Of a stretch of 64,000 nt of DNA, positions 5,603 through 55,976 are shown in pieces. Position 1 is the stretch's first letter; the number at the start of each line of letters is the position of its first letter. The notes under the pieces are model-generated. The model ran no database searches, was not told where the DNA came from, and saw nothing but the letters and a program-made list of their open reading frames with translations. The stretch spans positions 17,734,001-17,798,000 of the forward strand of contig CM097885.1 of assembly GCA_044892525.1 (NCBI GenBank), written 5' to 3'. A program made the translations under genes and the position numbers. Source of the stretch: Schmidtea polychroa (Eukaryota).

Positions 5603-5847
5603 AGTAGTGAGGAATCTATGCACCCCGTTACCTTTTCTCGGAATTACTAATCTATAAATACATCTATTCCGAACTTTTTTACTTTTAAGGGAAGAAATTA
5701 AGGGTTAATGGCAATAGGGGACAAAGTTTAAAAGTTAAAAAAAGTGAAGAATATGGGGTAAAAAAGCATATAAATGTGGAAAATATGGGTCAATAGCGCT
5801 GTTTTTTTTAGGGTGGGGGTGCTGGGGTGCATAGATTCCTCACTACT
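5603..5847. mobile_element. 245-bp mini-element with perfect 24-bp TIRs beginning AGTAGT
   Basis: agtagtgaggaatctatgcacccc (5603-5626) is the exact reverse complement of 5824-5847. No target-site duplication is visible. Confidence 0.75.
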
Positions 5848-5883
5848 ATTATTTATTCAATATAAGTTTCATTGGTTTCATTA

Positions 5884-6331
5884 ATGTTGACAAATATTAA
5901 TTACCGAGGACGAGTCCATTTGAAAATTATACGAAATATGAGATATCCATCAGGTAAACCTCAACAAAATTTAGATAGAAATGATAATTATACAATAATA
6001 TTTTTCAAGACAGGGAAATGTCGAATAATGGGTTGTAAGAAACCACTAGAAAGCATACATTATAATATTAAAGATGTTCAACTTCAATCATGTACAATCA
6101 CTAATGATATCTACCAAAAAATTAATTTGCTATATTTATCAAAGAAAACAAAATTTATATATGAATAAAAAATATTCACTGGGTTAAGAATTGAGTCTTA
6201 TAAACCTTTGTGTAAATTTATTTTCCAACGGGAAAATAGTTATACTTGGAATAAAAACTCTAAATTATGATTCGATTGTCAACAAAATTATACAAGATGT
6301 AAAATATTTGATTGGTTTACCAAAATTATAG
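5884..6331 (+). pseudogene. Divergent intronless TATA-binding-protein-like pseudogene
   Basis: Two TBP-repeat motifs: TIIFFKTGKCRIMGCK, then FIYE*KIFTGLR and, after a frameshift, VNLFSNGKIVILGIK. Broken by a stop at 6166-6168 and one frameshift. Confidence 0.7.
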
Positions 6332-6964
6332 ATATTGATAACGTTAACAATAAATTTAATTTACAATAATAACTCAACTTTCGGAAATTGGTAACATTTC
6401 AAATTTTATCATTTATTTTATTTTGTCTTAGAGTATAAGGTTGAGCTTCTTATTAATAAAGTGGTTGAGATTTATCCGGAAATGAAAGATGATATTATGA
6501 ATGATATTATGATATTATTTGTGCACCGGAAATTGCATCAAACAAAATATTTCAAGCAACTGGAAGCAATATAGAACGTATCATTTTTCATCATAAATTT
6601 ATGTTGTATGGCTATGAAAAATAAACGAAAATACTCAAAACTTTATCCTGTTATAGAAACTATGAAAAACATTACAATTAATAAGTCCGAAAATTTATTT
6701 TAATTATAAAATTGCGATGTTGATATCTGAATCCCATCTGAAGGTGATAATGATTTGGTTGCGATACCCGTGTTGGATGAAAATTTTCTTCTGAATAGTT
6801 AAAACAAATGTTATTGGCGAGCTTCATCTCTTCTTATATTCTCGTTTCTCTTTATTGAAAACGTAAGTATTTTTCTATTCTGATTATTTAATCAAGTCCT
6901 TTGTTTTCTATATCTTTTAGTACATTATAATATAATATATCTATATAAATAAATATGCAAATAT

Positions 6965-51335: not shown

Positions 51336-51828
51336 TTACATGTATATAGTATGATATTCATTAATCAGTATTAAACAGGCTTGACGATTGCGAACATTCT
51401 TCTCGTGACACTTAGAACAAACAATTACGTGACCACACGGTAAATACAAAACCGAAACTTGATTTTCTTTACAAATTGAACAGGTTAAATACCTTTTCTT
51501 AACATCGTTCAGTTTTTCCGTTAGCTTATTTTCAATCAAGTCGGCTTTTGCTATCCATTCATAAATCAATCTACTATATCCCGGTTTCAACCTTAAATAC
51601 ATGCAACTCCAAAAGTAATTCATTCAGTGAATCGTCGTTTACCACTGTTTTTTCTAAATACATTAAATAACTAGATAACTTCAAAATGCATTTATCATAA
51701 TTAAATAAATCAATCAAATATTCAATAGAGGAATGTTTGAAAATTTTTAAAATATTTATGATTTGCTTATCACTGTAAGTATCATGATTATTTATAAAAT
51801 CTTCAACTGTGTTGTTGAAAAATTTCAA
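51336..51828 (-). pseudogene. Mirror copy of the RING-finger pseudogene
   Basis: Translation identical to 45423-45915. Confidence 0.7.
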
Positions 51829-54800
51829 TGAAATTTCAGAATAGGTTGGACTTAATTTTTCCTTATTTCTAGTAGGACTTCCTTGCTATAAGTGACATAT
51901 ATAAAAAATATTGACAAAATAATAAAGTTACCAAATGTGTTTTGTGATTTACACATTCATATTCAACAGTTTTACTTGTAGAAATCATCAGTAATAAATT
52001 TCTTAATAAATAAATTACTTTTGTTTTTACATTTATAAAAATTGAGATAGCCAATCAAATTAGAGTTTTCAAAATTTAGAAATTGTAACCATGGTTGAAC
52101 CTTCAAATGTCTAAGTAAGATCATATTGTATAACAATAATAATAAGCATGACTAGTAACCTTTCAACCTGTTGAGTGTGAGCAGTACCCATAGGGGGACA
52201 AAATATTTTGTCGGATAGACAAGGAGTATATAATAATAATAATAATAATATGACCTTGATGACTCATCGCGATGACTCATATGACCTTGAGAATGACCTT
52301 GGATGAGTCATGCGACCTTGAAAATGACAATAATAATATTTAATCATGAAAATATTGAAAATCGTGAAAATTATTAAAATGTTAAAAATCATGAAAATAT
52401 AGAAAATGTTGAAAATGAGGAAAATGTTCCTGAAAATGTTTAAAATCGTGAAAATATTGAAAATGATGAAAATGATGAAAATATTGAAAATGATGAAAAC
52501 GTTAAACATTATGAAAATGTTCCTGAAAATAATCATCAAATATTGAAAATCGTAAATTGATGCAGAAATTAAGTTTTATGAATATTTAAGTAAATAAAAA
52601 TAAAACATCGAAAATAAAATAATAAGAACTTCGCAAATAATAATAATATTAATAATAATAATAATAATAATAATAATAATAATAATAATAATAATAATAA
52701 TAATAATAATAATAATAATAATAATAATAATAATAATAATAATAATAATAATAATAATAGTAATAATAATAATAATAATAATAATAATAATAATAATAAT
52801 AATAATAATAATAATAATAATAATAATAATAATAATAATAATAATATTGATAAAAACTTTGAAAATAATTTGAAAATAATACTTTGAAAAATATTCGATG
52901 AAAAAATCCTGAAATAATCATGAAAATGTAGAAAATTATTAAAATAATCATGCAAATGATGAAAATGTTGAAAATCATGTAATTGACGTAGAAATAATAA
53001 ATATTTTATAAATATTTAAGTAAATAATAATAATGAAACTTCTAAATTAAAATAATAATTAGAACTTTCCAAATAATAATAAAAATAATAATAATAATAA
53101 TAATAATAATAATAATTCTTTGAAAATAATTCTTTAAAAATAATACTTTGAAAAATATTTGATGAAAATGATCCTGAAATAATCATGAAAATGCTGAAAA
53201 TCGTGAAAATGTTGAAAATCCTGAAAATGCTGAAAATCATGAAAATGTTGAAAATCGTGAAAATATTGAAAATGTAGAAAATTATGAAAATATTCATGCA
53301 AATGATGAAAATGTTGAAAATCATGAAATTGACGTAGAAATAAAGTTTTATGAATATTTGCAATAATAATTATAATAATAATAATAATAATAATAATAAT
53401 AATAATAATAATACAACTTTGTAAATAATAATAAAAGTAATAATAAGAACTGTTTGAAAATAAGCTAACGGAAATATTACTTTGAAAAATATTTGATGAA
53501 AATGTTCATGTAACTAATGAAAATGTTCCTGAAATAATAATGAAAATATTGAAAATGTAGAAAATTATGAAAATGTTAAAAATCCATAAAATATTAATAA
53601 TTATGAAAATCATGAAAATGTTGGAAATTATGAAAATATTGAAAATTATTAAAATAATCATGCAAATGATGAAAATGTTGAAAATCATGTAATTGAGGTA
53701 GAAATTAAGTTTTATGAATATTTGTAAATTATAATAATAATAATAATAAGAAGAATTTTCAAAATAACTTTGAAAATATTAATAATAATAATAATAATAA
53801 TAATAATAATAATAATAATGATAATAATAATAATAATAATGATAATAACAATAATAATAATAATATTAATAATAATAATAATAATAATAATAATAATAAT
53901 AATAATAATAATAATAATAATAATAATAATTTTGAAAATAACATCTTCCGCGCGGGCGTTATTATCTTTCCCAATAATAATAATAAATTAAATAATTACA
54001 TAATCGATAATTTAAACAAACGTAATCGATAATTAAAACAAAAAAAATAATATAATCAACGATTTAAACAAAATTAAATTATTACATAGTCGATAATTTA
54101 AACAAACATAATCGATAATTAAAACAAAAAAATGATATAATCAACGATTTAAACAAAACGAAATTATTATGTAATTGATAATTAAAACAAAAAAAATAAT
54201 ATAATCAACGATTTAAACAAAATAAATTATTAAGTAATTGATAATTAAAACAAAAAATAATAATATGACCTTGAAAATAATAATATTTTGAAAAGTAATA
54301 ATATGACCTTGAAAATAATAATATTTTGAAAAATAATAATATAACCTTGAAAATAATAATATTTTGAAAATTAATAATATGACCTTGAAAATAATAATAT
54401 TTTGAAAAATAATAATATGACCTTGAAAAAAAATAACGTAATCGATAATTAAAACAAAAAAATAATAGAATCAACGATTTAAACAAAATGAAATTATTAT
54501 GTAATTGATAATTAAAACAAAAAATATTATTATATAATTAACGATTTAAACAAAATGAAATTATTAAGTAATCGATAATTAAAACAAAAATAAAAATATT
54601 ATTATATAATCAACGATTTAAACAAAATTAAATTATTAAGTAATCGATAATTAAAACAAAAACAAAAATATTATTATATAATCAACGATTTAAACAAAAT
54701 TAAATTATTAAGTAATCGATAATTAAAACAAAAATAAAAATATTATCATATAATCAACGATTTAAAGAAAATTATTATTATTACGCAATATTTTGAAAAA

Positions 54801-55976
54801 TAATGATATGACCTTAAAAAAATAAAATAATCGAATGCGAGTTGTTGAGCGTGAGCAGTACCTTTGTGAGCATTACCCATGGGGGGACAAAATATTTTGT
54901 CGGATAGACTCAGAGTATATAGATTAATACTAATAATAATAATAATAATAATAATAATAATAATAATAATAATAATAATAATAATAATAATAATAATAAT
55001 AATAATAATAATAATAATAATAATAATAATAATAATAATAATAATAATAATAATAATAATAACAATAACAAGATATATAGCTCATTCGAAAGGTCTTGGA
55101 TTGAGCTTTAAAATGAGCTATCGATTATTATTTTTAGTTGGCGGGAATTTTGAAAAAATTAAAAATAAAATAATAATATTTTTAAAAATAATAATAAAAA
55201 TAATAATATTTTTTAAAAATAATAATATGACCTTGATGAGTCATTGCGATGACTCATATGACCTTGGGAATGACCTTGGATGAGTCATGTGCCCTTGAAA
55301 ATGTCCTTGGTGAGTCATAGGATGTCTCAGATGACCTTGAAAATGACCTTGAAAAATTTTGATGAGTCATAGTATGAGTCATGTGCCCTTGAAAATTTTT
55401 TGATGAGTCATAGTATGCGTCATATGACCTTGAGAATGACCTTGAATGAGTCATATGACCTTGAGAATGACCTTGATGAGTCATAGTATGAGTCATACGA
55501 CCTTGAAATGACCTTGATGAGTCATGGTCTTTGTTTAAATGACCTTGAAAATTTTTATGACTCACCTGATGAGTCATATGCCCTTGAAAATGACCTTGAT
55601 GAGTCATAGTATGAGTCGTACGACCTTGAAAATGACCTTGATGAGTCATGGTCTTTGTTTAAATGACCTTGAAAATTTTTTTTGACCTTGATGAGTCATA
55701 TTATGAGTCATATGACCTTGAAAATGACCTTGATGAGTCATAGCACGAGTCATGGTCTTTGTTTAAATGACCTTGAGAAATTTGATGAGTCATAGGATGA
55801 GTCATGGTCTTTGTTTCAATGACCTTGATGAGTCATATGTCTTTGTTTAAATTTGACCTTGAAAAAAATGTACTTTTAGACTTAGAATATTTTTGAAAAT
55901 CTTTTCGACGGGGGGGAGGGGGAGGGGGGTACTGTGCTAGCGGTGCCCTGTGCCAGCGGTGCCCAATCCATCTACT

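Follow-up and report, generated by a model that had tools for sequence, protein, structure and literature searches.

A 64,000-nucleotide stretch of Schmidtea polychroa DNA (contig CM097885.1, positions 17,734,001 to 17,798,000; hereafter the window) contains a gene for a pPolB polymerase of the kind found in Polinton/Maverick elements, together with seven termini that begin with the pentamer AGTAG, which raises the question of whether these termini are the ends of related mobile elements and, if they are, what copies and inserts them. An initial annotation had read them as a population of non-coding Polinton derivatives, from 245 bp to 19 kb, with a common origin signature. Our analysis leads us to favour, with some reserve, the view that all seven AGTAG sites are true repeat ends of a Polinton/Maverick system, in which the pPolB element likely has its true end at the 5847 site and five of the other sites are likely the ends of polymerase-less fold-back passengers, copied and inserted in trans. 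The AGTAG boundaries, the (AGT)2 end beside pPolB and the modules common to the 10463, 30060/31618 and 37036 ends uphold the idea of such a population; the 245-bp unit as one of its members finds no support, and the 19-kb element is not strictly non-coding. In the mechanism that we propose, an AG-started short repeat would serve every family as origin and integrase site, family identity would lie in the subterminal arrays, and Polinton enzymes, acting in trans, would copy and insert the passengers, the palindromic bodies of which would stem from fold-back events.

AGTAG termini and the pPolB gene

Re-reading the window bore out the coordinates and sequences of all seven termini: AGTAGTGAGG at 5603 (+) and 5847 (-), AGTAGGGTAG at 10463 (+), AGTAGAAGGAAG at 30060 (-), AGTAGAGGGAAG at 31618 (+) and AGTAGATGG at 37036 (+) and 55976 (-). 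The bare pentamer is weak evidence, as its 58 sites in the window represent a modest enrichment over a dinucleotide expectation of 49.5 (mean 40.7 and maximum 54 in 100 order-2 simulated windows). The inverted pairs are strong evidence. Inside AGTAG, 19/19 bases are alike in the 5603/5847 pair, 18/19 in 31618/30060 and 19/19 in 37036/55976, as compared with 4/12, 3/12 and 1/12 outside it, and the best AGTAG pair across the 100 simulated windows reached 14/19. Similarity therefore ends at AGTAG in all three pairs, and at 10463 public contigs place the boundary at 10461-10463, so that AGTAG does mark the element boundaries. The C/G-rich tract reported near most termini was also recovered: a C or G run of at least 5 lies within 70 bases at 6 of the 7 named sites and at only 2 of the 51 other AGTAG sites, a criterion that is post hoc, since the named sites had been chosen with the run in view.

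The polymerase gene is an uninterrupted open reading frame (ORF) at 1060..5442 (-), which matches Pfam family PF03175 (E 1.8e-13; 50.6 bits against a cut-off of 25.8) and has its ATG 405 bp inside 5847. Its best homologs are 53% identical and many carry an endonuclease VII family domain (PF02945), in keeping with descriptions of Polinton/Maverick pPolB with an inserted endonuclease domain (10.1101/2023.08.22.554363; PMC11071308). Relatives were found in 16 viral contigs, at 27-32% identity, and in one short metagenome contig. When the 24 proteins of three related viral contigs (L002, L008 and L011) were scanned, an rve integrase and an A32 ATPase were present in all three and a double-jelly-roll capsid gene in two (L008 and L011). 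Because these relatives carry rve and ATPase genes, the ORF is, as judged by homology, a Polinton-class polymerase. The outer terminus at 5824..5847 (-) begins AGTAGTGAGG and reads AGTAGT from 5847, which is the (AGT)2 motif given as the commonest end motif of vertebrate Mavericks in the account of PMC8097293, and is likely the true end of the pPolB element. No AGTAG start or end, and no terminal hairpin like that of 5603-5847, was seen in the 17 pPolB-related loci, which are mostly incomplete, so that this says little.

The remaining families are linked to one another by what lies behind their ends. As the initial annotation had proposed, the 31618 and 37036 families have repeats in common, since both TGA(C/G)TCA and CAAGGTCA could be counted at each. 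Within the first 700 bases TGA(C/G)TCA occurs 17 times at 37036, 19 at 55976, 6 at 31618 and once at 30060; it is absent from the first 700 bases at 5603, 5847 and 10463, and the background is 2 in the 43.9 kb outside these elements. The corresponding counts of CAAGGTCA are 21, 17, 1 and 0. These arrays look like AP-1 sites (TGA(C/G)TCA) and NR5A-type sites (CAAGGTCA), which, from their consensus, we take to be candidate sites. The 10463 end is connected with the same group by a module, here called C, which is found at 13310 and in the arms of the 19-kb element, just as the arrays connect 31618 with 37036.

Several observations weigh against the reading of these families as parts of one Polinton system. 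Five of the seven ends begin AGTAGA or AGTAGG (four and one, respectively, of those at 10463, 30060, 31618, 37036 and 55976; families defined by the end words AGTAGATGG, AGTAGARGGAAG and AGTAGGGTAG), so the exact (AGT)2 or (AG)3 motif is missing there; the list of these motifs in PMC8097293 comes from vertebrate elements, among which a third end type also occurs. With the other families the pPolB end has neither an array nor a module in common, but only AGTAG and a loose GG...C-run pattern, so that their helper is not necessarily this pPolB. Since only that loose pattern joins the passengers to the pPolB end, their helper may be another Polinton family. No element in the window displays a target-site duplication (TSD). 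No Polinton integrase, ATPase or capsid gene was recognized among 19 frames scanned in the window, off the left edge of which the pPolB element runs, and the read evidence presented below stops short of the 30060, 31618, 37036 and 55976 ends. A search of viral contigs with the 37036 terminus gave 0 matches, and an Rfam search of the window gave no match.

The 245-bp unit beside the pPolB gene

The sites at 5603 and 5847 face each other 245 bp apart and had been annotated as the two ends of one small non-coding derivative. To examine this region we used public contigs of four sequencing runs from two studies (X3, X4, X1 and X2), placed over 5000-10900; a search had listed seven runs from these studies, six of which contained the stretch. 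Contigs over a caveolin-like gene served as the single-copy yardstick (about 380 in X3, 98 in X4, 74 in X1 and 80 in X2). Relative to this yardstick, summed contig depth in X3 was 1,380-2,490 over 5000-5787 and 1,457 in 5788-5984, then 184 and 26 in the bins that follow, and in X4 it was 1,300-3,090 and 1,512, then 130 and 14. There is no dip in depth to the left of 5603: pPolB, the DNA left of the unit and the unit itself form one deep block. This block includes the non-coding terminal region at 5443..5847 (-), which is very deep, continuous with pPolB in X3 and X4, and likely part of the terminal inverted repeat (TIR) of the pPolB element. The side that bears a TBP-like gene is a separate repeat, at about 130-220-fold in all four runs.

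Joints between contig segments point the same way. In X3 and X4 a single-copy joint, 5595-5653, connects pPolB-side DNA with the interior of the unit. A free MITE (a miniature transposable element with inverted repeats) in an otherwise common Polinton would leave an empty-site joint from 5602 to 5848, and the absence of this joint among the 15 best-supported of 157 joints counts against such an element. We conclude that 5847 is probably the end of the pPolB element and 5603 probably an inner inverted copy of its first 24 bases. The 245-bp pair is thus probably not the two ends of one element, and, since 5603 and 5847 are then not a true pair, no TSD is expected there. The unit would instead be the tip of a pPolB element that inserted next to the relic of an older Polinton with a TBP-like gene, and whose second end and TSD would lie to the left of the window.

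The rival to this tip reading is that the unit is a mini-element in its own right, a Polinton MITE with two origins, which amplified recently and happens to lie at the junction of a pPolB fragment and a TBP relic; we regard this as a minority possibility. It would explain the perfect 24-bp inward-facing TIRs, and a number of the contig data also tell against the tip. Depth in X3 peaks over the unit, at 1.48 million at position 5801 compared with 0.25-0.84 million at pPolB-side positions; in X1 and X2 pPolB stands at 35-155-fold and 5591-5984 at only 4-9-fold, which fits an independent mini-element absent from that lineage; and three listed contigs depart from the window sequence at 5597, so that not all pPolB-side copies enter the unit. 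In addition, the tool itself warns that summed contig depth must not be taken as copy number; the depth step is placed only to a 197-bp bin, within which arithmetic puts it at about 5850-5910; the short side of the 5595-5653 joint spans only 28-29 bases; and the joints and loose ends seen are 15 of 157 and 24 of 3,339. Against the mini-element stand the lack of a TSD, the DNA left of 5603, which is as deep as pPolB with no dip, the 5595-5653 joint, and the missing empty-site joint among those 15. Judged as a MITE, therefore, 5603-5847 has TIRs, no TSD, and a depth that is continuous with the pPolB side. Furthermore, over both the unit and pPolB the depth in X3/X4 exceeds that in X1/X2 by about ten-fold or more, and the pPolB copies of X1/X2 depart from the window sequence at many sites, so that their element ends may be too divergent to place. 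No loose end was seen at 5847 among the 24 of 3,339, which is neutral, as contigs drop such ends.

Since the TBP-bearing repeat is equally deep in all four runs, the contrast between X3/X4 and X1/X2 suggests that the pPolB element multiplied recently in one lineage, with the proviso that summed depth is no copy number. Two further joints were noted in this region. One, deep in X3 and X4, swaps 70 bases at 5499-5570 for five others and represents a common length variant between pPolB and the terminal hairpin. The other, 5500-6693, was found in all four runs with 21 bases on its short side and was set aside as weak.

Probable fold-back passengers and their missing target-site duplications

The largest of the candidate passengers, at 37036..55976, is a modular palindromic element of 18,941 bp with AGTAGATGG ends and unequal, partly divergent outer arms. 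Its ends align with 171 matches in 174 aligned bases (3 substitutions, 2 gaps) and then pass into homologous arrays, giving it long TIRs that start 5'-AG. The left subterminal array, at 37140..37651 (+), is composed of TGACTCAT, CAAGGTCA and TTTAAACAAAGAC units and is mirrored at 55220-55866, the two being about 85-88% alike, and a 2.1-kb tandem duplication (38100..42486 (+), 97.8%) is confined to the left arm. Overall the outer arms form a homologous patchwork, in which module B has 15 substitutions in 88 bases. At the centre lies an inner palindrome, 45001..52250, whose 3593-bp arms (45001-48593 and 48658-52250) flank a 64-base spacer (48594-48657) and differ by 3 mismatches in 3,593 bases (99.9% identical), with identity at 98% over 4.4 kb. 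Near-identical arms around a short spacer are the fold-back signature described for chromosomal inverted duplications (PMC3907307), and fold-back priming at a short inverted repeat could have produced this inner palindrome.

Each inner arm carries one frame for a RING finger of 95 residues, at 45628..45915 (+) with its mirror at 51336-51623 (-) (zf-C3HC4_3, E 5.5e-10), overlapped by an upstream frame of 103 residues. By eye its last zinc-ligand pair looks damaged; it had no homolog among longer proteins, and the Atlas returned generic RING clusters only. Inside the AGTAG-ended elements no transposase-coding frame was found. The 19-kb element, which had been called non-coding, is thus polymerase-less but not strictly non-coding, given the RING-finger relic in each inner arm.

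At 10463 the AGTAGGGTAG end opens one arm of a very deep repeat, 10463..14320 (+), made up of a GC-rich head, satellite arrays, an AAT run and module C, with a Gypsy-like region beyond its putative right limit. In X3, 11 contigs match the window up to 10460 and then carry other sequence, contig depth climbs from 37 thousand to 349 thousand to 1.76 million over successive bins, and single-copy contigs in X2 and X3 span the junction. A very abundant repeat therefore begins at 10461-10463 inside another repeat, in both studies, and this is a true insertion boundary. Module C (70-100 bp) lies at 13310-13385, about 2.8 kb past 10463 after the satellite arrays and the AAT run, and is found five times more in the 19-kb element, with E 8e-13 for the best copy; the order of modules suggests that it is part of the 10463 element. 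The window contains no mirror arm of this element.

The ends at 30060 and 31618 face outward, 1,557 bp apart, within an intron. The former belongs to a short remnant of a AGTAGAAGGAAG end (29970..30060 (-)), and the latter to a longer AGTAGAGGGAAG end (31618..32560 (+)), where a TGACTCAT/CAAGGTCA array is joined by an inner hairpin (32406-32490) and by AT-rich modules that resemble the modules of the 19-kb element. The two have 30-32 bases and a TTAAACAAAGAC unit in common before they diverge, no convincing second end was found in the window for either, and they look like two copies of a sister family, both truncated, that inserted separately into the one intron. The host gene, of the LicD family, spans 25879-33662 (+), and its predicted 6.9-kb intron (26198-33072) holds both ends together with a fragment that by eye is transposase-like (26368-26877). 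Further AGTAGA sites with a short common ATTCAGTT word lie at 29333 (+) and 32967 (-); as partner ends of 30060/31618 they were rejected, since the likeness is short, the interiors cannot be aligned and there is no TSD, so that it is probably chance.

The initial annotation had pointed out that the two inward-facing pairs lack the 6-bp TSD expected from a Polinton integrase, and this proved correct: neither has a TSD of 4-10 bp at the AGTAG boundary or at any symmetric shift. The scan slid from -6 to +8, with 225 offset combinations per pair, and its few matches all fell at unequal offsets; inspection by eye gave no TSD of 2-3 bp at either pair. The Polinton norm is TIRs of 100-1500 bp with TSDs of 5-8 bp, as set out in 10.1101/2023.08.22.554363. 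At 37036-55976 the flanking hexamers are GCTAAG and ACCCTA, not a 6-bp TSD, and this copy is no fair test of its family. Its left flank, 36803..37035 (+), is what remains of a Gypsy-type gag at its N-terminus, broken off at about residue 87 (60% identical to residues 2-41 of the homolog P0129, E 3e-12), and P0129 extends 28 residues beyond the left junction with no match for these in the window. Its right flank, 55977..59152 (+), is a broken Gypsy pol that begins at residue 3 of the pol homolog P0121. If both come from one Gypsy family, although P0129 and P0121 may come from different ones, the flanks would not have been adjacent before insertion, and the missing TSD would then be best explained by recombination that joined outer arms from different insertions, or by deletion of the DNA beside one end. 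Absent TSDs thus have ordinary explanations, an untrue pair in one case and rearranged flanks in the other, and call for no new integration chemistry. A search across the window for partners by TSD hexamer gave unrelated matches only; the hexamer to the right of 55976, ACCCTA, recurs at 36758-36763, 273 bp left of 37036, where it is followed by AG but by no terminus, possibly by chance.

Three other explanations of these families bear on the same evidence. The AGTAGA/AGTAGG families could be Foldback-like members of an unrelated cut-and-paste superfamily (MuDR/Foldback, P/Galileo, hAT, Academ or Kolobok) in which the AG start is a coincidence; long, internally repetitive TIRs are a hallmark of Foldback and Galileo, the ends are not exact (AGT)2 or (AG)3, and beyond AGTAG and the GG...C-run pattern they have no homology to the pPolB end. 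We nevertheless consider this decidedly unlikely. TSDs are 8 bp in hAT, 3-4 in Academ, TTAA in Kolobok, 8-9 in MuDR-Foldback and 7 in P-Galileo, and none of these was found at symmetric offsets of the tested boundaries, so that no rival superfamily gains a TSD there and the refuting outcome of unrelated TIR superfamilies finds no support in this test. The reading of the ends as TAG-started, as in hAT and Academ, fails because AG lies within the TIR in all three pairs, and a Kolobok reading fails for want of a TTAA TSD at the boundaries; the pentamer AGTAG, moreover, also starts the end beside pPolB.

Insertion that leaves no TSD, through a recombinase or a repair route other than the Polinton rve integrase, would account for the lack of a TSD in both inward pairs (0/2) and for the fact that no integrase was found in the window. 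It seems very unlikely to us, however, because one pair is probably untrue and the other has non-adjacent flanks, so that neither is a fair test, and because relatives of this pPolB carry rve. We give equally little credence to the idea that the inner palindrome at 45001-52250 is a fold-back artefact of long reads or amplification and that the 19-kb element as assembled is unreal. Arms of 3593 bp with 3 mismatches around a 64-base spacer are what such an artefact could leave, and AT-rich arrays assemble poorly, yet identity declines gradually outward, from 99.9% to 98% over 4.4 kb, and the structure is closed off by outer arms that are distinct and have termini of their own.

A possible self-priming terminus, related systems and neighbouring repeats

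The inner inverted copy at 5603..5626 (+) is identical to the terminus at 24/24 bases and forms a stem with 5824-5847 around a 197-base loop. In the predicted fold, 5603-5626 is base-paired with the 3' end of the plus strand at 5847, and 5560-5602 stays unpaired as a tail; with a z-score of -7.9, the fold of the 245-mer says no more than the 24-bp inverted repeat does. On a displaced strand, 5603-5847 could thus act as a self-priming hairpin with the DNA left of 5603 as its template, and extension from it would give a palindrome with the element body as its arms and the 245-bp unit at its centre. In the standard model, as summarised for casposons after Polintons in PMC4046053, a single-stranded intermediate is closed by both TIRs, to which a local terminal hairpin would be an alternative; in that summary Polinton replication is itself inferred, not demonstrated. 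Because no AGTAG unit lies at the centre of the 19-kb element, a hairpin such as that of 5603-5847 is no direct explanation of this centre. About 690 bp inside the left end of that element, and there only, the terminal GGGCACCGCTAGCAC word recurs in inverted form at 37720-37735 (-), with AGTAG before it, and may be what is left of an inverted inner terminus of the 5603 kind.

A wider scheme can be imagined, which we rate as improbable. In it, the snap-back end of this genome's dominant pPolB Polinton would prime without terminal protein and so offer a second mode of replication, yield giant hairpins, seed palindromic passengers and shed 245-bp two-origin mini-replicons, and the passengers would keep the AGTAG origin and add AP-1-like and nuclear-receptor-like arrays that tie their copying to host factors.

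Compared with Polintons/Mavericks (polintoviruses, adintovirus-like elements), the locus is alike in its endonuclease-bearing pPolB, in the (AGT)2 end at 5847 and in having relatives with rve, A32 ATPase and capsid genes; TBP-like and protease-like relics also adjoin, the TBP label appearing in a figure legend of PMC8502044. It differs in carrying its first 24 bases a second time, inverted, 245 bp inside the end, in a separate duplicate of the pPolB C-terminus, and in that an integrase, capsid genes, a second end and a TSD are either missing or located beyond the window. Non-autonomous Polintons have been reported, such as zebrafish Polinton-1N1_DR, judged by its name (PMC9341505), Tlr1, which is sometimes treated as one (PMC5499653), and the polB-less polintons of butterflies (10.1101/2025.02.07.637071). 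The passengers resemble these in having Polinton-type ends, no polymerase gene and a presumed mobilisation in trans, and differ, Polinton-1N1_DR being compared by name, in their satellite-filled fold-backs of up to 19 kb, dense TGACTCAT/CAAGGTCA arrays and AGTAGA/AGTAGG ends. Chromosomal fold-back duplications, as described in PMC3907307, also have near-identical arms around a short spacer like that at 48594-48657, but lack transposon termini. The passengers have in common with the Foldback (FB) and Galileo elements of Drosophila very long, modular, repetitive and unequal inverted arms that are prone to rearrangement. Those elements move by DDE cut-and-paste and make 7-9-bp TSDs, whereas here the ends start with AG and neither a 7-9-bp TSD nor a transposase was found. 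Parvoviruses, which have self-priming hairpin ends and a Rep nickase, are alike in that a 3' end can pair back (5603-5847) and different in that a protein-primed polymerase is encoded here.

Polymerase-less Polinton passengers are thinly described in the literature, and families that keep only the AGTAG start would define a minimal cis signal for Polinton replication and integration. A self-priming terminus, if true, would give a direct biochemical handle on the origin of palindromic forms. The copies in the window are truncated or rearranged, which limits what it adds. Maverick expansion has been noted in some flatworm genomes (10.64898/2025.12.11.693146). A literature search whose scope ended short of the founding papers (Kapitonov and Jurka 2006; Pritham 2007), Repbase reports and supplements gave no account of palindromic passengers of Polintons or of a terminus with an inverted inner copy, and both may have been described before. 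What would be new here is a terminal hairpin that permits self-priming in principle. This self-priming-capable end may be counted as an addition along with the reinterpreted 245-bp unit, the ordinary explanations of TSD loss, the read support at 10463 and the common internal module.

On either side of the pPolB end lie further coding pieces. The duplicate of the pPolB C-terminal part is a separate, uninterrupted ORF of 187 residues at 481..1044 (-), immediately downstream of the polymerase gene, with 73% nucleotide identity over 464 bp. An open frame of at least 127 residues with a hydrophobic start, at 3-386 (+), converges on this duplicate; it has no Pfam match and presumably resembles the small genes of invertebrate Polintons. 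To the right, a broken TBP-like gene at 5866..6331 (+) abuts the 5847 end (PF00352, E 0.008 and 0.019, below the cut-off) in a repeat that is roughly ten-fold less deep. It is followed at 7004..7174 (+) by a fragment like an adenain/Ulp1-type maturation protease, a lead only, whose best feature score of 0.89 comes from clusters that are mostly Preplasmiviricota; this fragment had no Pfam or PDB match, and its Atlas score is below 0.9. The TBP-like and protease-like pieces are probably relics of an older Polinton. In the pPolB-related loci, tblastn gave no match to the TBP-like, protease-like or RING pieces. A piece of a caveolin-family host gene at 8120-8458 (-) (Pfam E 5e-24), at single-copy depth, is wedged between repeats.

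Elsewhere in the window, a piece that by eye is ubiquitin-like runs into a coiled-coil frame at 20405-20980 (-), upstream of a BEL/Pao-like gag fragment (19081-19560). A Penelope-type GIY-YIG frame at 22534-23175 (-) contains an in-frame asparagine run from an AAT microsatellite, with related pieces at 34476-36714. Finally, two inverted copies of a roughly 600-bp repeat, at 18256-18859 and 59602-60226, each contain a 36-bp palindrome (18814-18849 and 59612-59647) and lie beside Gypsy elements.

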